Source of the DNA: a virus
Lineage: Duplodnaviria; Heunggongvirae; Uroviricota; Caudoviricetes
Virus record (IMG/VR): IMGVR_UViG_2609460005_000007
Reading direction: 5' to 3' (one strand)
Length of the DNA stretch: 26,748 nt
Shown here: positions 1-26,748 of the stretch, piece by piece
How the letters are laid out: each line of letters begins with the position of its first letter
Numbering within the stretch: the first letter of the stretch is position 1
Made by a program: the position numbers and the translations under genes
The notes under the pieces: generated by a model
Database searches by the model: none
What the model saw: the letters and a program-made list of their open reading frames with translations, nothing else
Told to the model about the DNA's origin: nothing

Positions 1-97
1 AATCATTGCTCATCGTGTTCTCTTGCCTGAACTAATAAAATATGATAGTACTCATCCTTAATTATTATTGTAACTCAGACATCCATGATTTTTATTA

Positions 98-1123
98 TTA
101 TCCAAATAGTTTTCTTTTATACTTATTTAATTTAAATTTAATGAAGTAAATAAAAGCGTTAAACGTATCACCATTTTTCTTTGCATGTTGATATTTCACT
201 TGATACTGCTTTTCATTCGTGGCTGGAATAAACGCCACATCATTCCAGCAAGAAGCCTGATAAGCCTCATTAAAATACTTCTGGCAGGGATAATTCGTCC
301 AGTCGTTCCAGGGCTTCGTTACGCCAACATAATGAATCAGCTTAGTATCATCGGTAATGGTCTTTTTATAATCTTCATCGCTTTTATTTTTTAACTCATA
401 GTCAATGCCATAAAAGCAATCATAATCGCTGCTAATAAAAATACAATGACCAAAGAACAGAATATTTAAAATATCCTGATCAAGGCATTTATACTTCGTG
501 TGCTGCGGGTCACTTGCCAGCATAGCAATGGCTTTATTCATAAAATCATTTTTCGCCCATGCTTCAAGCTGCAGATATACTACACCGGCGTTGAAATAAT
601 TCCCTGGAAGTCCCTCTATAGCCAGACGCTTCGCTGGTTTTTCCTGCATAAAAGGCACATCTTTAATAACAGCTGCGAACTTATCCTCATCAAAATTAAT
701 ATCAAGCAATCCAGCTAATGAGCCTTTACAGATGACATCAGCATCGATATATAACAGATTTTCAATAGTTTCACTCAAATACTGGAACGCAACTAAACGG
801 AAGAATGTTGCATAAGACCACTGTTTCAGGCTGGGGAAGATATCAATAAAGGCATTGGAGACTTTATAAATTATTACTTCAACGTTAGCATTTTTGCTGG
901 TAAAAGCATTAACACGTTGTAGATAATCTTCATCAATGTAGTCGGTAAAGAGATGAAACTTAACCGCAAGGTCCGGGTTATGCATAACAACTGATTGCAT
1001 AGATACTGCCGCACCAAATAAAAAGTTACGGTCAATACCGTAAGCGATATTTAACACACGATCGGTGTTAGCAATTTCCCCAGAGACAGCGACTTCAGTA
1101 ATACTCTCAGCTAATAAATCCAT
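98..1123 (-). CDS. waaW: GT8-family LPS outer-core glycosyltransferase, WaaW-like (alpha-1,2-galactosyltransferase of R1/R4 core types)
   Basis: 341-aa ORF, paralogous to the two GT8 ORFs at 1851-2846 and 2863-3879 (shared N-terminal YGID(R/K)NFL(F/Y)G block, DAD and DQD motifs, C-terminal HY(V/T)G(x)TKPW). Sits distal to waaY as in R1/R4 waa loci. AT-rich. Ortholog name is inferred from gene order only. Confidence 0.65.
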   Translation of the reverse strand: MDLLAESITEVAVSGEIANTDRVLNIAYGIDRNFLFGAAVSMQSVVMHNPDLAVKFHLFTDYIDEDYLQRVNAFTSKNANVEVIIYKVSNAFIDIFPSLKQWSYATFFRLVAFQYLSETIENLLYIDADVICKGSLAGLLDINFDEDKFAAVIKDVPFMQEKPAKRLAIEGLPGNYFNAGVVYLQLEAWAKNDFMNKAIAMLASDPQHTKYKCLDQDILNILFFGHCIFISSDYDCFYGIDYELKNKSDEDYKKTITDDTKLIHYVGVTKPWNDWTNYPCQKYFNEAYQASCWNDVAFIPATNEKQYQVKYQHAKKNGDTFNAFIYFIKFKLNKYKRKLFG

Positions 1124-1148
1124 GTTGGTTCCGTTTTGACTGTGTGGT

Positions 1149-1841
1149 TTACGCTTTGCCTTTTAATTTTTTAATAAATTTGCGTAGTTTGGTTCTGTAG
1201 ATTACTGAATAGTAGCCATAATCTTTTATTTCGTTGACAATACCCAGGTGACGTTCCATGGCCAGACGATCACGAGCTTTACGCTCTGCCGTACAGCTTT
1301 TACCGGATAGGTCAATTATCCTGACACCATCTTTACTAACGATAAAGTTACCCCGGTGTGGGTCGCCCGATAGCATATTTAAGGCATGCAATTTTTCCAT
1401 TGAAGCCTTAATTTCTGCTTTAACATTTTCTGGAATAATCGGCATATCATTGAGCTCTACGCCCTCGACATACTCGATAAGCATGATAAAAACACTAGCA
1501 TAGTTGAAAATTTTACGCTCAGCCAGAAAATAAAAATCATTAGGAAAAGTAAGACCTGCACTTCTGACACGATCGGTTTCAACGATCAAATTCTGATAGT
1601 AGTCACCTTTTACAAAAGATTTTAAAAAACGTTCATTCCTTTTCGTTTTCGGAGCAAAGACTTTAAAAACATAGCGACCATATTTCGTATCAATCAAAGA
1701 TACTTTGGTATCATCAATATTACGTAATACTTTTACTGTTTTAAAATTATAGGCCAGTATTTCATCAAAGATTTCTTTATATTTATTATCATTATCTTTG
1801 TAATAAAATGAGAAGCCGCGATAACGTATACTTGTAATCAT
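1149..1841 (-). CDS. waaY: LPS core heptose(II) kinase WaaY
   Basis: 230-aa ORF (K-12 WaaY is about 232 aa). Kinase-like catalytic loop DPHRGNFIV and DLSG (DFG-like) motif. Positioned between GT8 genes in the waa operon. Confidence 0.8.
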   Translation of the reverse strand: MITSIRYRGFSFYYKDNDNKYKEIFDEILAYNFKTVKVLRNIDDTKVSLIDTKYGRYVFKVFAPKTKRNERFLKSFVKGDYYQNLIVETDRVRSAGLTFPNDFYFLAERKIFNYASVFIMLIEYVEGVELNDMPIIPENVKAEIKASMEKLHALNMLSGDPHRGNFIVSKDGVRIIDLSGKSCTAERKARDRLAMERHLGIVNEIKDYGYYSVIYRTKLRKFIKKLKGKA

Positions 1842-1850
1842 AAGAGTAAT

Positions 1851-2846
1851 TTATTTCTTAAGCTTGTACTTAATTAATGAAGTTATGCCTTTTATATACT
1901 CACCATGGGCAAACAGATGCTTATATTGTTTCTGCATTTCTGCAACAGTCCGCGCCTCTTTAAGAGGATATTTCTTCCAGGGAGATTGTTCACGCGCGAT
2001 ATTAAAGTATGATGCAGACGGATATCCAGCCCAGCTATGCCATGGTTTAGTTATCCCTGTATAGTGAATCAACACTGTTTTATCGGTAATGGTTTGCTGA
2101 TACTTTCGATGACTACGATCATAAAGTTCGTTTTTCAGGGTATAAATAGTATCAAAATCCTTCGCAAGGTAGATATTATTCATATTAAATGCGATATTCA
2201 ACGCATCCTGATCTAAATATTTAAGAGAGCCATATTTAGTTTCCCCTCGTAAAAGTTTGAGTAAATACGGTGTCAAATTTGCTTCATGCCATTTTTTAAG
2301 ATTGACATAGATAACGCCTGCATTGAAATAACGTCCATTCATTTCGGGAATGTTGAGGCGTTTTGCACATGCCGCCTGAGTACTATCATTGTCAGGAATG
2401 ACCGCAGCAAACTCATCTTTAAATATAATTTCTGTGAGAGGTTTCAGGCTTCCTTTACAAACAACATCGGCATCCAGATACAGCAGTGTGGAAATACTTT
2501 CACTCAGATATTCAAAAGACAATACCCTGAAGTATGTCGCGTACGACCAAAACTGTGACGTCGGCAGATCAGCAAAGTATTTGGGGTCAATTAAATATAC
2601 AATAATTGAGGTATTAAATTGTTTTGCTGTTTCATTAAATGACTTTAAATAATCATCATCCACATAATCAGTGAAAACATGAAAGACAAAATTAATATCT
2701 GAATTATTAATCAAAACGGAAGAAATTGAAACGCCAGCACCATACAAAAAATTCTTATCGATACCGTAGGAAACATTTAGCTCTGGGGCGTTTTCTTTTT
2801 TATTATCTGCTAAATACGAAAACCGTTCTTTTATAAATTCATTCAT
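1851..2846 (-). CDS. waaT: GT8-family LPS outer-core glycosyltransferase, WaaT-like (alpha-1,2-galactosyltransferase)
   Basis: 331-aa ORF with GT8 motifs (YGIDKNFLYG, LDADVVC, LDQDALN). Second gene after waaP, immediately before waaY, as in R1/R4 order. Confidence 0.65.
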   Translation of the reverse strand: MNEFIKERFSYLADNKKENAPELNVSYGIDKNFLYGAGVSISSVLINNSDINFVFHVFTDYVDDDYLKSFNETAKQFNTSIIVYLIDPKYFADLPTSQFWSYATYFRVLSFEYLSESISTLLYLDADVVCKGSLKPLTEIIFKDEFAAVIPDNDSTQAACAKRLNIPEMNGRYFNAGVIYVNLKKWHEANLTPYLLKLLRGETKYGSLKYLDQDALNIAFNMNNIYLAKDFDTIYTLKNELYDRSHRKYQQTITDKTVLIHYTGITKPWHSWAGYPSASYFNIAREQSPWKKYPLKEARTVAEMQKQYKHLFAHGEYIKGITSLIKYKLKK

Positions 2847-2862
2847 TTAACTTTTCTCAATT

Positions 2863-3879
2863 TCATTTTATTATCTTTAAATAAAAATAATAAATATAAT
2901 TCATTATCCCGTTAATTGGTTTGTTTTGTTTAAAATTATGCTTGGCGCAATAACGAGCATAGTTTGAGTTAACTGGCCGCATTAACGGTTCATTTTTCCA
3001 GGGCGATGCTTCTTTGGCTTTGATAAAAGGTTGCGCACTTGGATAACCGGCCCAGTAATGCCAGGGTTTTGTCGGGCCGACATAATGAATTAATACGGTT
3101 TCATCATTAATTGGACAAACAAATGATTTTTTTAATTCATAATTTAAACTAAATTGCGTATTGTATTTAGCATCAATGAATTTAACTTTCCCTAACAGGA
3201 TAAGATTAAGGATATCTTGATCCATATAGGTTAAACGGGAAACGATGGCTTTATCAGCAAGCATCGACATCGCTTTAGCAGAAACGGACTCCTGCGCCCA
3301 CGCTAGTGTATTAATTAACAGGACACCTGAATTAAAGTAACCCTTTTCAAGTTCATTACACTGCAGACTTTGACCCCGTAACGACCACCAGTTAGCATCG
3401 CGTTCAGTAACAACAGCAGCAACGTTATTGGCAAGATCCATTGTTATCAGCGGCTTTAAGTTTCCCTGACAGGCGATATCAGCATCCAGGTAAAGGATCT
3501 TATCTTGTTGATCAATAAAGTAATCTGCAATTACAAAACGGAAATACATGGCAATAGACCAATTTTTGGTCGTCGGTAATGCCTTAAGCCGTTCACAATT
3601 TACTAGATGGATCTGGATACAGGTACGATAGCTTTTCGCCAATTGGGCTAAACGCTGGATATCGGCTTCAGGGATATCATCAATAAAAACGTGGAAAACA
3701 AAACTCACGTCGTTGTTATGTAACAAAACTGACGTGATTGAAACACCACAACCAAAAAGAAAGTTTTTATCAATGCCATAAGCAACATGGAATGATGATG
3801 CCACTGACGCCGCTGGCCTTTCATCGAAGATGATTGTCTTATTGATCATCTCTTGTGGATTAAAATAGTGGGCACTCAT
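2863..3879 (-). CDS. waaO: GT8-family LPS core alpha-1,3-glucosyltransferase WaaO (WaaI)-like
   Basis: 338-aa ORF with GT8 motifs (YGIDKNFLFG, LDADIAC, MDQDILN). Directly downstream of waaP with no waaS/waaB (GT4) between them, unlike K-12. Confidence 0.7.
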   Translation of the reverse strand: MSAHYFNPQEMINKTIIFDERPAASVASSFHVAYGIDKNFLFGCGVSITSVLLHNNDVSFVFHVFIDDIPEADIQRLAQLAKSYRTCIQIHLVNCERLKALPTTKNWSIAMYFRFVIADYFIDQQDKILYLDADIACQGNLKPLITMDLANNVAAVVTERDANWWSLRGQSLQCNELEKGYFNSGVLLINTLAWAQESVSAKAMSMLADKAIVSRLTYMDQDILNLILLGKVKFIDAKYNTQFSLNYELKKSFVCPINDETVLIHYVGPTKPWHYWAGYPSAQPFIKAKEASPWKNEPLMRPVNSNYARYCAKHNFKQNKPINGIMNYIYYFYLKIIK

Positions 3880-3894
3880 ATTTCTCTCCGGAAA

Positions 3895-4692
3895 TTACAA
3901 CGATTTTCGAATCGTTCTTTCCCTGATTTTTGTGGCTTTTGCTTCTGCTTGCGACAGCAGTCCTTGTTCCTGCTTGAGAATGTCTTTAAGCGGGGCGGCA
4001 AAATACACTTTCATAAACCGCCAGATATCCCGCTGAGTCAGGCCGATATTCATTGAAGAAAAATAAAGCCCTATAAGATCTTTATCGCGCCAACGACGTG
4101 GAACGCGCGTGCGAAGCTGCGCCCGGTGTAGGTCAATTACCGAAATTTTTAACTCCTCTTCCTTACCGGAAAAAGGCAAGTGCAGCAGGAAATGACAGAT
4201 ATAACAGTCACGGTGGTTAATGCCCGCAGCATGCATATCGCGCACCATCGTCGCGACACGCTTAATAAGCATACGCTTTACACGAACATCTGGAGGGTTA
4301 GTCGCCCAATCAGCACAGTAATCTTCCAGACTTATGGTTGGTGTCAGATCTTCGGTAATAATAAACGAGGTTCTGGTCAGCGGATTCATGCCTTTTTCGC
4401 CGAATGCCACCCCATACATAGTATCAACGCCGACATCCCGCAGTCGATGAATCGCATTCCATTCGCGGTCTGCGCCTAATACTGGCATCCGCAATGAGAG
4501 TAAATTTTTGATTATCTCTTTCAGGGTCGTGCCGCGATGCCATTTGAGAAAATAGCTTTTGCCCGCCATTTCAAAGCGCAGAGTACGGCGAGTTTCCAGT
4601 TCACGAAATACCTCACCCTGCAAGGTTTTAACTTCCTCAAAAGGATCTTTGCCGCGCCATAACGTGGCAAACGGCTCTTTAAGTTCAACCAT
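3895..4692 (-). CDS. waaP: LPS core heptose(I) kinase WaaP
   Basis: ORF 3895-4701; translation from the internal Met ([21 protein letters not shown]...) gives the 265-aa WaaP recalled for K-12. Kinase motif [11 protein letters not shown] and IDLHR. Start overlaps the waaG stop. Confidence 0.88.
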
Positions 4693-5809
4693 CCAGACCA
4701 CCCGTTATGATATCCGCCGCTTTCTCTGGCAGACTGTATAAATCTTGTGTATCAGCATAATGTCGCGCATTTTCCGCCCAGGCCTGGCGCAATGAAGATT
4801 GCGTTAACGCTTTGCGTAAAATCTCATTCAATGTTTCCTGGCGGAATGGCTCAGCAATAGCCTCGCCGCAATTGGCGTCGACAATATAATGCGCATAGCC
4901 ACAAACGGCTGTTGTTAGTACCGGTAATCCTGCAGTAATCGCTTCCAGCAGCACAATTCCCGCCGCTTCCTGGTAGGCAGGATGCAGTAATAAATCCGCC
5001 GCCGCCATTAATTCCGAGACATCATTGCGCCCCGAGAAAAAGTGAACATTACTGCGCACGCCGCGTTTTTCTGCCAGCGCCTCAAATTTTCGCGGTTTAT
5101 CCTGCCCAACAACATATAGCAATGTGTTGTGGCGCAGCGAATCCGGTAACGAAGCAAGTGCTTCAATGGAACGATCGACACCTTTACGCGTGAAGTCTGA
5201 ACCGACCTGCAACAATAAATATTGTTGTTCGGTTATTCCATTCTTCTTACGGAATATTTCACGGCTATTGGCTGGCTGCTGGCTATATTTACGATCAGGA
5301 TAAATCCCCGGTGGCAGAATATGAAAACGCTCCGCTTCAGTCTGATAATGTTTCTGGAAATCGGCGATTTGCTTATCTGTCAGCATCAGCAGCTGTGTCG
5401 GCTTGCCCTGTTCGAAGGTTGCCCGCTCAAAGGCGGCATAATGGCGATAACGTGACGTCAGGCGATAGAAAAAGCCTTTCTCCTGCGCTACTTTCTCGGC
5501 ATAACAAACATCAGCGGCATAATAAACGTCCAGCCCCGGCATTTTGTTGAATCCAACGACTTTATCGACGGGATGTTCGCGTAAATGTTTTTGCACCCAG
5601 GTAAAATACTCCGCATTGCGCCCGTGATTGGTACGCGATTTAACCGGCACTTTGATCAGTTCAAATACATCAGGGCATTCGCCTTCCCACGACTGGGTAT
5701 AAACCCGAACATGATGACCTCGGGCGGCGACTGTCTGAGCAATACGCATAAAATCGCGCTGCAAACCGCCAAAGGGAAAATATTTATATAAACAAAAAGC
5801 AACGATCAT
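4685..5809 (-). CDS. waaG: LPS core alpha-1,3-glucosyltransferase I WaaG (GT4)
   Basis: 374-aa [23 protein letters not shown]..., same length and near-identical to K-12 WaaG as recalled. ATGA overlap with the waaQ stop. Confidence 0.93.
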
Positions 5810-6864
5810 AACGACGTACCTGTCGTGGAGGAGGGCAGTAATTTATCGACAGCAGCAATGACATCTGCCGCCGGAATAACCGAAAGATACATCTCATTTC
5901 GGTCACGCTGATCGCGCGTTGGCATTTCCCGGTAATCTCCCGCCCAGAATTGAATCATGTTATTTGACCAGGGACGCCAGAAAATATGATCTGTTGCGCC
6001 AAACAGCGATATCAGCGGCGTATTAACTGCAGCGGCAATATGCGCCGGTGCGGAATCAACGCCAATAAACAGCTGCGCATGATCGATTAACGCACCAAGT
6101 TCCGGGAAGGTCACCTTTCCAGCCAGCGCCGTTACTGGTGGCGTCTGGCATCCCTGCGCAATTTCATTGACGCAGGCCAGATCGTCTTTATCTGGGCCGG
6201 ACGTCAGAACGACTTCATAACCACGAGCATGTAAGGCATCAATCACAGCGGAAAACTTGGCGTTGTCCCAGCATTTGAAGATTTGCCGCGCCGTAGGTTG
6301 GATAACCACATAATTTTGTCCAACACCAGCGTGATCAAGTTCGCGACGCATACGTTTCCAGCTTGCAGGCGGGTAACTCATGGTTGTCTGCTTCACCAAC
6401 GAATCAAGTCCCAATGGTGTCAGCACGGATAAGTTACTTTCCACCACATTTCCACCCTGCAACGGCACCAAATGGGTGAAACTTTTACGCCAAAAAGCAG
6501 ACTGCCGATGATGATAATCCTGGGAAATTTTCACACGAGCATTTAATAAGCGAACCAGTATAGCAACCATCCATTGATCGGTAAGATTGACGATAAGGTC
6601 ATACTTATTGGCACGTAATACCTTGATGAGATGAAAAAAGTTGGCAATTTTTTCTGAGGCTTTTGCTTTTTTATTTTTTATGCCGTAGAGCGCGTTAATC
6701 TCTGGATTTTCAGACAGGATCGGGATGGTGTCCTGATAAAGCAGCACATCGATTTTTGCGTCAGGGTAATTTTTTTTCAGCGAACTAATGACGGGAGTAG
6801 TTAATAACATATCCCCATGAAAACGCATCTTAATGAGCAAAATTCTTCGAAATGGCTTATCCAC
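5806..6864 (-). CDS. waaQ: LPS core heptosyltransferase III WaaQ (GT9)
   Basis: 352-aa ORF. N-terminus RILLIKMRFHGDMLLTTPV resembles the heptosyltransferase N-terminal motif. First gene of the operon, downstream of the ops element. The start could instead be the internal Met 12 codons in. Confidence 0.85.
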   Translation of the reverse strand: MDKPFRRILLIKMRFHGDMLLTTPVISSLKKNYPDAKIDVLLYQDTIPILSENPEINALYGIKNKKAKASEKIANFFHLIKVLRANKYDLIVNLTDQWMVAILVRLLNARVKISQDYHHRQSAFWRKSFTHLVPLQGGNVVESNLSVLTPLGLDSLVKQTTMSYPPASWKRMRRELDHAGVGQNYVVIQPTARQIFKCWDNAKFSAVIDALHARGYEVVLTSGPDKDDLACVNEIAQGCQTPPVTALAGKVTFPELGALIDHAQLFIGVDSAPAHIAAAVNTPLISLFGATDHIFWRPWSNNMIQFWAGDYREMPTRDQRDRNEMYLSVIPAADVIAAVDKLLPSSTTGTSL

Positions 6865-6913
6865 AAGTAACTCTTTTTGTTGAGATTATCCGATTAAGGT
6901 GAAGCAGAAAAAG

Positions 6914-6925
6914 CACGCTACCGCC
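6914..6925 (-). promoter_or_regulatory. ops element (RfaH-dependent antitermination signal, core of the JUMPstart sequence) in the waaQ operon leader
   Basis: Minus strand reads GGCGGTAGCGTG, an exact match to the ops 12-mer, followed by CTTTTTCTGCTTCAC. Lies about 50 nt upstream of the waaQ start. Confidence 0.75.
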
Positions 6926-7276
6926 CCAGGCTCAACAGCTACCTGAATACTGATACCGCACTGATATTGACGCGCTAGTGTATCACTTCTTTCGCGGCAA
7001 TCCGACCCGAATGATTTTTAAGCACATTGTTGATTTTCAATAAAGAAATCAATCAAATAAAATCATTAGCAACCATATTCTTTCACTGTTGCTCTGCGAT
7101 TCCTTCCTGCACGTACAGCAGAAATCAATGAATCGCATAAAAATACAAAAAAAGTATAGATGTTCAGCAAGAATTGGCGGGTAAATTGCTATTTAAGTCA
7201 AAAACGGGAAAAGTAATGGTAAAGCCACAGCTAAATACATAGAATCCCCAGCACATCCATAAGTCAGCTATTTACT

Positions 7277-9041
<1,765 letters not shown>

Positions 9042-9048
9042 CGTTTAT

Positions 9049-9070
9049 GCCGGATGGTATGCCATCCGGC
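9049..9070. terminator. GC-rich hairpin between convergent coaD and mutM (possible bidirectional terminator or REP-like element)
   Basis: GCCGGATGG-(tatg)-CCATCCGGC perfect 9-bp stem. No strong U-tract on either side. Confidence 0.3.
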
Positions 9071-9079
9071 GCGCATGAA

Positions 9080-9889
9080 TTACTTCTGGCACTGCCGACA
9101 ATAAAACGTTGCCCGCTGCGCATGTTTAGTCGCCACAATCGGCGTACCGCACACCCGACACGGCTCGCCTTTTCGCCCGTAAACCTGCAATTCCTGAGCG
9201 AAATAGCCCGGTTTACCATCACTTTGCAGAAAATCTTTCAGCGTTGTACCACCCTGCTCAATCGAACGCAGCAACACCGCTTTAATCACCCGAGCTAACA
9301 ATTCACACTCTGCCAGCGACAGTGATGACGCCAGCCGATCCGGATGGATCCCCGCCGCAAACAGTGATTCGCTGGCATAGATATTCCCTACCCCTACCAC
9401 CAGCTTGTTATCCATCAGCCACGGTTTAATCGCCGTTTTTTTCTTCGCGCACTTCTGATGCAGATACTCACCATTGAAATCGTCGCTAAGCGGCTCCGGT
9501 CCAAGATGGGTCAGCACATTATGCCCTTCCAGCTCTTTGGTCCACAGCCAGGCACCAAAGCGGCGCGGATCGGTGTAGCGCAGCACTTTGCCGTTGCTCA
9601 TCACCAAATCCACATGGTCATGCTTTTCAGGGGGAAGTTCTTCTGGAAGGATGCGCAGGCTGCCAGACATCCCTAAATGAATGATAATCCAGCCCTCAGG
9701 CAGCTCCAGCAGCAGATATTTAGCCCGCCGCTGCACGCTAAGCACTGGTTGGTCGCTTAAACGGTAGATCTCTTCTGAAACCGGCCAGCGCAAGCGTCCG
9801 TTGCGCACCACTGCATGAAGAATGGTTGCACCAACGAGATGCGGTTCTATGCCGCGGCGGCTGGTTTCAACTTCGGGTAATTCAGGCAT
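9080..9889 (-). CDS. mutM: formamidopyrimidine-DNA glycosylase MutM/Fpg
   Basis: 269-aa ORF with N-terminal MPELPEVE (catalytic Pro2/Glu3) and C-terminal zinc finger CRVCGTPI...FYCRQCQ. Confidence 0.95.
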
Positions 9890-9940
9890 AGCATCTCCAG
9901 GAATGAACAGATGCAGTCAATATGGGGGCAAGCAGATAAC

Positions 9941-9969
9941 AAAAAACCCCGCCGGAGCGAGGTTTTTTG
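9941..9969 (-). terminator. intrinsic terminator downstream of rpmG
   Basis: On the minus-strand RNA: CCUCGC-uccg-GCGGGG (one G-U wobble) followed by U6. Lies between the rpmG stop and the mutM start. Confidence 0.5.
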
Positions 9970-9986
9970 TTACATCAAAGCGAGAA

Positions 9987-10157
<171 letters not shown>

Positions 10158-10174
10158 TTATTTCCTCTAAGTAC

Positions 10175-10432
<258 letters not shown>

Positions 10433-10627
10433 TTAGCTCGAGCTTCGTATGGGGTATTGGCGCCTCGTCAGGCTTTACAGCCCGGTCATCGCAGTTCTAT
10501 GTGAACTCTCGATTGCCAGGCCCAAATGCCAAACCCGAGATTCTCAAAGGTGGCGTAGTATACGCTGACTCAGCGATGTGCTCAAGTCCCGAACAGACAA
10601 AGATCCCGAAGGATCGCGCATAGCGGG

Positions 10628-11303
10628 TTAAATCCAGCCGCGTTCGGCAAAAGAAACATACTCTCCACGCCCAATCACGATATGGTCGAGCACGCGTAAA
10701 TCCATGAACTGACAACTCTTTATTATCCGTTCAGTAATGAGTTTATCCGCTTTACTGGGTTCAGCACAACCCGAAGGGTGATTATGTGCAAGGATCAGCG
10801 CCGAGGCGTTTATTTTTATCGCTTCGCGGATAATTTCCCGAGGATGGACTTCAACATGGTTTAGCGTGCCGGAAAAAAGACGGCTATGCGTTATAACCCG
10901 GTGTTGTGAGTCGAGAAAGATCACCATAAAGATCTCCCGCTCCTCACCCGTGAGCTGGCTTTGTAAAAATTCCCGCGTCATCTCCGGGCTGAGTAAAGGG
11001 CTTTCTTCACGCATCCGCACGTTGTAGTAACGTCGCGCCAGTTCAGCAATCCCCCTTTAACTGGGCAAATTTCGCCACGCCAATTCCATGAACGCCACTA
11101 AATTGTTCATATTCAGAGGTTAACAAGCCATAAAGAGAGCCGAAATTCTCCAGCATCTCTTTTGCCAGGGTTAATACATCTTTACCGCGCGTTCCGGTAC
11201 GCAGAAATAGCGCCAGCAGCTCGACATCCGTTAAGGCGCTAATACCAAACTTCAGCATTTTTTCGCGCGGCATCAACAGCTGTGAATTGTTTTTCACCTT
11301 CAC
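10628..11303 (-). pseudogene. yicR: radC/yicR (UPF0758 JAB/MPN-domain protein) interrupted by a +1 frameshift in a 5-nt homopolymer
   Basis: N-terminal ORF 11043-11303 (...[11 protein letters not shown]) and C-terminal ORF 10628-11020 (...RMREESPLL...HNHPSG...). They join into one about 222-aa YicR if one C is removed from the CCCCC run at 11051-11055 (plus strand), restoring ...[21 protein letters not shown]. Confidence 0.75.
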
Positions 11304-11468
11304 CTCCTTTGTGGTGCTCGCATCCTGTCATAGCCGTTTCGTTAAATCGACGGCCAGTTTTCAATCCTGGAAAGCGCCTCGCAAAGTGAATCTCAGGTGA
11401 AGGCACGACAACAAAAGTATTGTGATAAAATCGCCAACTTCTGGTGTCACCCTACAGGAAAAATCATC

Positions 11469-12689
11469 ATGAGCCTGGCCGGTAAAAAAATCGTTCTCGG
11501 CGTTAGCGGCGGTATTGCTGCCTATAAAACCCCTGAACTGGTGCGTCGTTTGCGCGATCGCGGGGCCGACGTCCGCGTAGCCATGACCGAAGCGGCAAAA
11601 GCCTTTATCACCCCACTTAGCTTGCAGGCGGTTTCTGGTTATCCCGTTTCCGACAGTCTGCTGGACCCGGCAGCCGAAGCCGCTATGGGCCATATTGAGC
11701 TGGGTAAATGGGCTGATTTAGTGATTCTCGCCCCTGCCACGGCAGATTTGATTGCCCGTATTGCTGCCGGAATGGCGAATGACCTGGTATCGACGATTTG
11801 TCTGGCTACACCTGCGCCTGTAGCCGTGCTCCCCGCCATGAACCAGCAGATGTACCGTGCCGCTGCCACGCAGCATAATTTAGAGGTGCTTGCTTCCCGT
11901 GGTTTGCTCATCTGGGGGCCAGACAGTGGCAGTCAGGCTTGTGGTGATATCGGTCCTGGGCGAATGCTCGATCCGTTAACCATTGTGGATATGGCGGTGG
12001 CGCATTTTTCGCCCGTCAACGACCTGAAACATCTGAACATTATGATTACCGCCGGTCCGACGCGTGAACCGCTCGATCCGGTGCGTTATATCTCTAATCA
12101 CAGCTCCGGCAAGATGGGTTTTGCTATCGCCGCCGCCGCTGCCCGTCGTGGCGCGAACGTCACGCTGGTATCAGGTCCGGTTTCACTACCGACGCCACCG
12201 TTTGTTAAACGTGTTGATGTGATGACTGCGCTGGAAATGGAAGCCGCCGTGAATGCTTCTGTACAGCAGCAAAATATTTTTATCGGTTGCGCCGCCGTGG
12301 CGGATTATCGCGCAGCTACCGTGGCCCCAGAGAAAATCAAAAAGCAGGCCACGCAGGGTGATGAATTAACAATAAAAATGGTTAAAAACCCCGATATCGT
12401 CGCAGGCGTTGCCGCACTAAAAGACCATCGACCCTACGTCGTTGGATTTGCCGCCGAAACAAATAATGTGGAAGAATACGCCCGGCAAAAACGTATCCGT
12501 AAAAACCTTGATCTGATCTGCGCGAACGATGTTTCCCAGCCAACTCAAGGATTTAACAGCGACAACAACGCATTACACCTTTTCTGGCAGGACGGAGATA
12601 AAGTCTTACCGCTTGAGCGCAAAGAGCTCCTTGGCCAATTATTACTCGACGAGATCGTGACCCGTTATGATGAAAAAAATCGACGTTAA
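11469..12689 (+). CDS. coaBC: bifunctional phosphopantothenoylcysteine decarboxylase / phosphopantothenate-cysteine ligase CoaBC (Dfp)
   Basis: 406-aa product from [20 protein letters not shown]... (flavoprotein fold N-terminus, CoaB C-terminus). The ORF-track upstream extension is rejected. Confidence 0.95.
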
Positions 12690-13125
12690 GATTCTGGACC
12701 CGCGCGTTGGGAAGGAATTTCCGCTCCCGACTTATGCCACCTCTGGCTCTGCCGGACTTGACCTGCGTGCCTGTCTCGACGACGCCGTAGAACTGGCTCC
12801 GGGTGACACTACGCTGGTTCCGACCGGGCTGGCGATTCATATTGCCGATCCTTCACTGGCGGCAATGATGCTGCCGCGCTCCGGATTGGGACATAAGCAC
12901 GGTATCGTGCTTGGTAACCTGGTAGGATTGATCGATTCTGACTATCAGGGCCAGTTGATGATTTCCGTGTGGAACCGTGGTCAGGACAGCTTCACCATTC
13001 AACCTGGCGAACGCATCGCCCAGATGATTTTTGTTCCGGTAGTACAGGCTGAATTTAATCTGGTGGAAGATTTCGACGCCACCGACCGCGGTGAAGGCGG
13101 CTTTGGTCACTCTGGTCGTCAGTAA
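12667..13125 (+). CDS. dut: dUTP diphosphatase (dUTPase)
   Basis: 152-aa [38 protein letters not shown]... Start overlaps the coaBC 3' end by 23 nt. Confidence 0.95.
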
Positions 13126-16278: not shown

Positions 16279-16314
16279 CTCGTAACGCCAATTCTTACTT
16301 TTCAGCCTTCACAA

Positions 16315-16349
16315 ATGCCGCCCACTCAAACAGAGCGGCATTTTTCTTC
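16315..16349 (+). terminator. intrinsic terminator downstream of yicC
   Basis: ATGCCGC-(13-nt loop)-GCGGCAT followed by TTTTTCTT. Confidence 0.5.
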
Positions 16350-16437
16350 CCCGCAACTTCAATTCTGTTTTGCGTGCCTGCTCCAGATTTTGCGATGTTT
16401 TTTTGCCCAGCACACTGAGAACGTGAGATACTCACAA

Positions 16438-16453
16438 CTGTATATAAATACAG
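16438..16453. promoter_or_regulatory. LexA operator (SOS box) of dinD
   Basis: CTGTATATAAATACAG: a perfect CTGT-N8-ACAG palindrome with AT-rich spacer, about 45 nt upstream of the dinD start. Confidence 0.75.
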
Positions 16454-16498
16454 TTACAGATTTACTTTCTTTGCAATCGATATCACATGGAGTGGGCA

Positions 16499-26664: not shown

Positions 26665-26748
26665 CTCTATTTGGGGGAACCGCAGAATTCGGAAAAAATC
26701 GTACGCTAAGCTAACGGTGTTCTCGTGACAGCTCTTTGACTAGGCTTT

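Follow-up and report, generated by a model that had tools for sequence, protein, structure and literature searches.

Which type of lipopolysaccharide (LPS) core is specified by the glycosyltransferase genes lying at one end of the viral record IMGVR_UViG_2609460005_000007? The question concerns the whole analysed stretch of 26,748 nucleotides, referred to below as the window, in which positions 98–3879 carry three glycosyltransferase family 8 (GT8) genes and the LPS kinase gene waaY. The initial annotation of this cassette left the choice between the R1 and R4 core types. According to our analysis, positions 98–3879 very likely correspond to the type-specific genes within the waaQ operon of an Escherichia coli strain with the R1 core, the operon having the order waaQ-G-P-O-T-Y-W-(V). 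The locus is a textbook R1 core operon and as such is already known, and the former "R1 or R4" is sharpened to R1.

Seven tightly packed and intact open reading frames (ORFs) follow one another on the minus strand at the left end of the window in the order waaQ-waaG-waaP-waaO-waaT-waaY-waaW (Table 1), and these ORFs, together with their Pfam and NCBIfam families, bear out the previously proposed succession waaP-GT8-GT8-waaY-GT8. The three GT8 proteins gave Glyco_transf_8 E-values of 7e-81, 1e-72 and 2e-72 in Pfam; PF01501 was found in all of them with 244–272 bits (cut-off 24.3), and PF08437 is their C-terminal domain. At 399.8 bits, WaaY clears the cut-off (248) of the NCBIfam RfaY equivalog NF007684, and the Pfam model PF06176 spans residues 1–229 of 229 in it. 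WaaP, WaaQ and WaaO were recognised by the RfaP equivalog (482 bits vs 170), the RfaQ equivalog (714 bits vs 467) and PRK15171 (612 bits vs a cut-off of 461), respectively, all from NCBIfam. The gene waaP belongs to the conserved inner-core context and stands outside the type-specific cassette.

Gene order within 98–3879 cannot by itself separate R1 from R4, because an R4-type genome matches waaO, waaT, waaY and the greater part of waaW with 99–100% identity. The distinction is provided by the junction of waaW and the next gene. In an alignment of window positions 1–330 to two genomes of the GT25 type and one of the GT2 type, identity is perfect from about position 193 rightward; to the left of this point the two GT25-type genomes lose any meaningful similarity, whereas the GT2-type genome remains identical. 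Positions 1–192 comprise the last 32 codons of waaW (98 to about 192), the spacer and the first 13 nucleotides of waaV, and the differences between this WaaW and R4 WaaW are concentrated in the C-terminal 32 residues. Neither the junction alignment nor protein identity revealed an R4-like 3′ end of waaW in the window. Since positions 1–192 are the R1 junction and are unalignable with the R4 junction, the locus is assigned to R1 and not to R4. The R1 and R4 loci diverge at about 193, and therefore the boundary of recombination between them lies inside waaW.

In the complete E. coli genome AMSCJX02, a 327-residue protein named "glycosyltransferase family 2 protein" (Pfam Glycos_transf_2, E 9e-40) starts at the equivalent of window position 13. 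Positions 1–192 recur in 1834 (33.8%) of the 5426 complete E. coli genomes. Of 60 rows sampled from these matches, 58 list a GT2/GT-A gene next to waaW, in one case under the name GT8 only; a GT25 neighbour was met in none of the 60. The R4 junction with an adjoining GT25 gene occurs in 692 genomes (12.8%), and 1834 + 692 = 2526 is the total number of genomes carrying this waaW. These counted shares fit the published ones, 35.4% for R1 and 12.3% for R4 (PMC13293308), which supports the typing by junction. The typing primer R1R4-R (PMC13293308) matches window positions 235–254 exactly, and polymerase chain reaction in silico on AMSCJX02 placed primer R1-F in waaV, 842 bp from R1R4-R, which is the published size of the R1 product (PMC13293308). 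WaaW has 341 amino acid residues (aa), as does its counterpart in TK001, a strain that carries waaV (PMC12548472).

Judging from the junction and these first 13 nucleotides, waaV (GT2) rather than waaX (GT25) is predicted directly downstream of waaW. The gene that tells R1 from R4 had been placed just beyond the 5′ end of the window; this is true of the bulk of waaV, but its first 13 nucleotides are inside, and the junction 1–192 already decides for R1. The block specific to each of the two types consists of the waaW 3′ end, waaV or waaX, and waaL; it extends to waaL because the ligases of R1 and R4 share no more than 35% identity. The gene waaL would be located about 1 kb outside the window, and an R1-type O-antigen ligase is present in AMSCJX02. 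For practical typing, the last ~95 nucleotides of waaW suffice to tell R1 from R4 without waaV or waaX.

Comparison with whole genomes leads to the same locus. Window positions 1–13000 show no mismatch against AMSCJX02 (100% DNA identity), where the annotated order is rfaQ, waaG, rfaP, waaO, GT8, rfaY, alpha1,2-galactosyltransferase, GT2 and O-antigen ligase, and where the locus is flanked by rfaD-F-C and waaA-coaD. The first 7 kb of the window have matches in 5425 of 5426 complete E. coli genomes, with at least 80% of this query covered in 2519 of them, many at 100% identity. WaaO, WaaT, WaaY and WaaW are exact copies of proteins found on at least 1000 contigs each; the exact WaaO is listed under the UniRef representative Q9ZIS5_ECOLX and the exact WaaT under Q9ZIS6_ECOLX. 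The gene arrangement is not a product of chance, because complete E. coli chromosomes carry this region with 100% identity. In strain 2-1 (NZ_CP097198.1, a pig isolate), the matching locus is 100% identical except that it harbours an IS1B-family element within the part corresponding to window 1–1130, and the GT8 fragments annotated by RefSeq at this element indicate a natural IS1 disruption in or adjoining waaW.

Table 1. Features of the waaQ operon in the window and identity of its variable proteins to those of other core loci (K-12, R2-like, R3 of O157:H7, and R4-like, the last represented by two GT25-carrying genomes; all loci annotated).
Feature	Position	Strand	Size and support	Identity to other core types
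Start of waaV, first 13 nucleotides, ATGAGCAATGATT	1–13 (read 13 to 1)	minus	Aligned to the GT2 gene of AMSCJX02	
waaW-waaV intergenic spacer, R1-specific version	14–97	minus	Equal to the R1-type genome, unalignable with two R4-type genomes	
waaW	98–1123	minus	341 aa; Pfam Glyco_transf_8 + Glyco_transf_8C; RefSeq product name	94% R4; at most 39% K-12/R2/R3 GT8 proteins
waaY, LPS core heptose II kinase	1149–1841	minus	230 aa; Pfam WaaY PF06176, E 4e-129	100% R4; 52% K-12, R2 and R3 WaaY
waaT	1851–2846	minus	331 aa; Pfam Glyco_transf_8 + Glyco_transf_8C	100% R4; 42–44% K-12 WaaJ(R), R2 WaaR and R3 WaaJ
waaO	2863–3879	minus	338 aa; Pfam Glyco_transf_8 + Glyco_transf_8C, E 7e-81	99% R4; 50–51% K-12/R2 WaaO and R3 WaaI
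waaP, heptose I kinase	3895–4701 (ORF); RefSeq start equivalent 4692	minus	Pfam Kdo/WaaP family, E 1.5e-75	
waaG, GT4 glucosyltransferase I (adds Glc I)	4685–5809	minus	Pfam Glycos_transf_1/GT4; genome annotation	
waaQ, heptosyltransferase III, first operon gene	5806–6864	minus	Pfam GT9; NCBIfam RfaQ equivalog	
JUMPstart element, waaQ leader	6914–6952	minus (coding strand)	Rfam RF01707, 55.2 bits vs gathering score 35, E 3e-10	

Several other readings of the cassette were considered. An enterobacterial core of another type (K-12, R2, R3 or Salmonella), misread from gene order, is practically negligible as an explanation. It could appeal to waaQ-G-P, waaY and GT8 paralogs, common to all these loci, and to the Salmonella-derived NCBIfam label "3-alpha-galactosyltransferase" carried by WaaO. 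However, among the ORFs between waaP and the window start, inspected together with their Pfam matches, there is no waaS, waaB (GT4), waaZ, waaK/waaU or waaD, and the GT8 proteins of the window are only 32–51% identical to those of K-12, R2 and R3, with 52% for WaaY. The best matches of the GT8 proteins, in which K-12 or R3 relatives would have spoken against the proposed type, are at 94–100% to R4, with 100% DNA identity to the R1-type genome, while WaaO, WaaT and WaaW reach at most 51, 44 and 39%, respectively, with K-12/R2/R3 proteins. A GT4 homolog of waaB, equally unfavourable to that type, is missing from the operon, since WaaG is the only GT4 protein there. Thus, gene content and identities of 32–52% led us to reject a K-12, R2, R3 or Salmonella-like cassette, and the contrast with the annotated K-12, R2 and R3 loci upholds the R1/R4 arrangement seen in waaP-GT8-GT8-waaY-GT8. 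An R4 locus, in which waaX, the GT25 gene for a beta-1,4-galactosyltransferase, and the R4 waaL would come after the same waaO-T-Y-W cassette, has in its favour the near identity of the shared genes mentioned above, and yet it is highly improbable. Positions 1–192 are unalignable with two GT25-carrying genomes and identical to a GT2-carrying one, the C-terminal 32 residues of WaaW are the R1 version, and the sampled genomes sharing positions 1–192 contain no GT25 neighbour. The R4 assignment was rejected on the junction sequence.

A number of points weigh against a canonical R1 locus. Beyond its first 13 nucleotides waaV is outside the window, as is waaL, and the presence and intactness of both genes are deduced from genomes sharing the junction. 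One sampled row (H115), whose match starts at query position 7, lists no GT2/GT-A gene, and another (H120), covering query positions 1–159 at two places in the record, lists the GT2 gene only. Strain 2-1 demonstrates that this waaW has a natural variant with IS1, and in ECOR46 a double R1/R4 locus carries both waaV and waaX (PMC13293308). WaaO shares about 51% identity with K-12 WaaO, whose annotation is that of a glucosyltransferase, and as much with R3 WaaI, which is listed as a galactosyltransferase; because it is equally close to the two, the choice between glucose (Glc) and galactose (Gal) as the donor sugar is not readable from the sequence. The R1 core structure of this strain is itself a prediction from DNA. 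Hence one may imagine a locus derived from R1 and non-canonical outside the window, where an insertion sequence interrupts waaV or waaL or where there is a double locus or chimera similar to that of ECOR46. Such variants exist, as strain 2-1 (IS1 in waaW) and ECOR46 (PMC13293308) illustrate, and 2 of the 60 sampled junction genomes, H115 and H120, are without the pair of waaW and GT2 gene under the match. If this were true, the core would be truncated or hybrid, or there would be no ligation of O-antigen, despite the textbook waaO-T-Y-W cassette. In our opinion, this explanation is very unlikely: a GT2/GT-A gene is annotated beside waaW in the other 58 of the 60, and waaO, waaT, waaY and waaW are all intact and represent the most frequent alleles without any change. 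The canonical R1 operon is the reading adopted below.

The leader of waaQ contains a JUMPstart element, the only Rfam match in the window. Within it, at positions 6914–6925, lies the 12-nucleotide ops sequence GGCGGTAGCGTG, which occurs once, compared with 0.06 occurrences expected by chance. The ops sequence is the recruitment site of RfaH, an antiterminator. By this leader, the operon belongs to the JUMPstart/ops type, and it is predicted to be RfaH-dependent. A consensus scan of positions 1–7300 for promoters and terminators yielded 19 promoter-like sites (20.1 expected) and 4 terminator-like ones (6.8 expected). The guanine plus cytosine content is 0.34–0.40 over approximately 1–4000, compared with 0.48–0.59 in the rest of the window, the shift being situated around waaP/waaO; such an outer-core cassette, rich in adenine and thymine (AT-rich), would fit a type-specific module exchanged horizontally.

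The following scheme of core biosynthesis may be proposed, in which gene content, order, intactness, families, junction and JUMPstart were taken from the sequence studied here, and the specificities for sugars and linkages from the literature. Transcription would start upstream of waaQ and pass through the JUMPstart/ops leader with recruitment of RfaH, so that the long AT-rich operon could be transcribed to its end. Core assembly would take place at the inner membrane, on its cytoplasmic side. There, WaaG would transfer Glc I onto heptose (Hep) II; WaaO, as a uridine diphosphate (UDP)-glucose:(glucosyl)LPS alpha-1,3-glucosyltransferase, would attach alpha-1,3-Glc II to Glc I; WaaT, as a UDP-galactose:(glucosyl)LPS alpha-1,2-galactosyltransferase, would attach alpha-1,2-Gal I to Glc II; and WaaW would add alpha-1,2-Gal II to Gal I. 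WaaY is expected to phosphorylate Hep II of the inner core, and WaaV to form the beta-1,3-Glc side branch on Glc II, which defines R1 and is the reported site of O-antigen attachment.

In the literature, the main chain is built in the order WaaG (Glc I), WaaO (Glc II), WaaT (Gal I) and WaaW (Gal II), WaaV adds beta-Glc to Glc II and needs the prior action of WaaW, and the inner-core heptoses are modified by WaaP, then WaaQ, then WaaY (bioRxiv 10.1101/2022.09.06.506728; PMC12548472). Loss of waaV in a strain carrying this gene removes the O-antigen bands (bioRxiv 10.1101/2022.09.06.506728; PMC12548472), and ligation of O-antigen to the glucose added by WaaV fits the scheme for this reason. The R1 core structure was given as Glc-Glc(-betaGlc)-Gal-Gal (bioRxiv 10.1101/2022.09.06.506728; PMC12548472), and the Gal-alpha1,2-Gal outer core predicted earlier agrees with these publications.

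It should be mentioned that RefSeq and NCBIfam PRK15171 name WaaO "lipopolysaccharide 3-alpha-galactosyltransferase". The K-12 curation, the R1 literature and one source name for this exact sequence describe it as an alpha-1,3-glucosyltransferase. The galactosyltransferase label looks like an error in naming the donor sugar, spread by the equivalog model.

The three GT8 proteins are 33–43% identical in pairs (global identity matrix), WaaT and WaaW being the closest pair, and 34–37% identical to the first sequence in the multiple alignment. The blocks YGIDxNFLxG, DAD, DQD and HYxGxTKPW, named earlier as common to these proteins, are all invariant in the three-protein alignment, where they occupy columns Y34-G35-I36-D37-x-N39-F40-L41-x-G43, D132-A133-D134, D220-Q221-D222 and H265-Y266-x-G268-x-T270-K271-P272-W273. 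The three genes are, to judge from the alignment, genuine but old paralogs, and their products belong to glycosyltransferase family 8 (retaining, GT-A fold). LgtC is the structural prototype of the retaining galactosyltransferases of family 8. The closest solved relative of the Waa GT8 proteins, although a distant one (E 5e-17), is this galactosyltransferase of Neisseria (PDB 1g9r/1ga8), which shares the family and the catalytic domain with them: the DAD of the query (127–129), which is the DXD metal/nucleotide-sugar motif of the family, stands opposite DID 103–105 of LgtC, and DQD opposite DQD. LgtC forms an alpha-1,4 linkage on lipooligosaccharide, and its alignment ends by query residue 283, so that the Glyco_transf_8C tail present in the Waa enzymes has no LgtC residues aligned to it.

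Core type sets the acceptor for O-antigen ligation and is a direct receptor determinant for LPS-binding phages. The practical outcome here is a strain annotation, namely the R1 core, the commonest type, found in about 34–35% of complete genomes. We take strain F470 to be the R1 prototype. E. coli C is also an R1-type strain (bioRxiv 10.1101/2022.09.06.506728), and phiX174 infects it by way of its LPS. Mutations in waaW, waaV, waaT, waaY and waaO that confer resistance to phiX174 in E. coli C, or to other coliphages in TK001, were reported (bioRxiv 10.1101/2022.09.06.506728; PMC12548472).

Other parts of the window deserve a brief description. At the breakpoint 26673/26674, the last 75 bases (26674–26748) depart from the chromosomal gene downstream of recG, which in other strains is a hypothetical ORF of 288 aa followed by gltS. 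This tail begins with GGGGAACCGCAGAATTCGGAAAAAATCGTACGCTAAG, presumably the terminal inverted repeat of a Tn3-family transposon of the Tn1721/Tn1722 type, and the 75-mer is present at 100% identity on thousands of plasmids from many genera. Strain SW07164 has a match to the tail in place, the sole one among the matches listed, with a gene of a methyl-accepting chemotaxis protein next to it; we assume that a gene of this kind occupies the same place in Tn1721. The tail is probably a chromosomal transposon insertion truncating the hypothetical gene. AMSCJX02 is without the transposon end, though it matches the first 13 kb exactly. SW07164 also has (L009 4967–11303) an insertion of about 7 kb between yicC and dinD, absent from the window (equivalent ~16279–16486), with an integrase, IS1, IS3 and a PerC-family regulator. 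None of the genomes examined has a contiguous match to the whole window.

The gene yicR/radC (~10628–11297, minus strand) contains an extra G at about 11051–11055, GGGGG compared with GGGG in K-12, and is split into ORFs of 86 and 130 aa. RefSeq marks this gene as "frameshifted" in AMSCJX02, too, and an exact 61-mer over the G-run was found in only 12 of 3175 matching genomes. The gene is thus either a pseudogene confined to a rare lineage or one in which the homopolymer was misread during sequencing.

Finally, the locus may be compared with the known core loci, which occupy the same chromosomal site, from waaA/coaD to rfaD-F-C, in the case of R3, K-12 and R2 as well as of the window. Common to all of these are waaQ-G-P, the WaaY kinase and GT8 transferases of the main chain. 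The R3 locus, waaQGP-waaI(O)-waaY-waaJ-waaD, has two GT8 genes compared with three in the window, and R3 also has a GlcNAc (N-acetylglucosamine) transferase; the annotated O157:H7 locus, with waaP-waaO(I)-waaY-GT8(waaJ), confirms the GT8-waaY-GT8 order ascribed to R3. The K-12 and R2 loci, waaQGP-S-B-O-J/R-Y-Z-U/K, differ from the window in having waaS, the GT4 gene waaB and waaZ; the initial annotation was right that waaB comes after waaP in these loci, but it is waaS that lies directly next to waaP. The R4 locus (waaQGPOTYWX-waaL) has the same gene order as the window as far as waaW and differs from about position 193 onward, where the C-terminus of WaaW is another one (342 aa in total vs 341 aa here), the GT25 gene waaX replaces the GT2 gene waaV, and WaaL follows with 35% identity to that of R1. 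From the R1 locus (waaQGPOTYWV-waaL) no difference is detectable within the window, which has the same gene order, proteins, waaW 3′ end, spacer, waaV start and JUMPstart leader.

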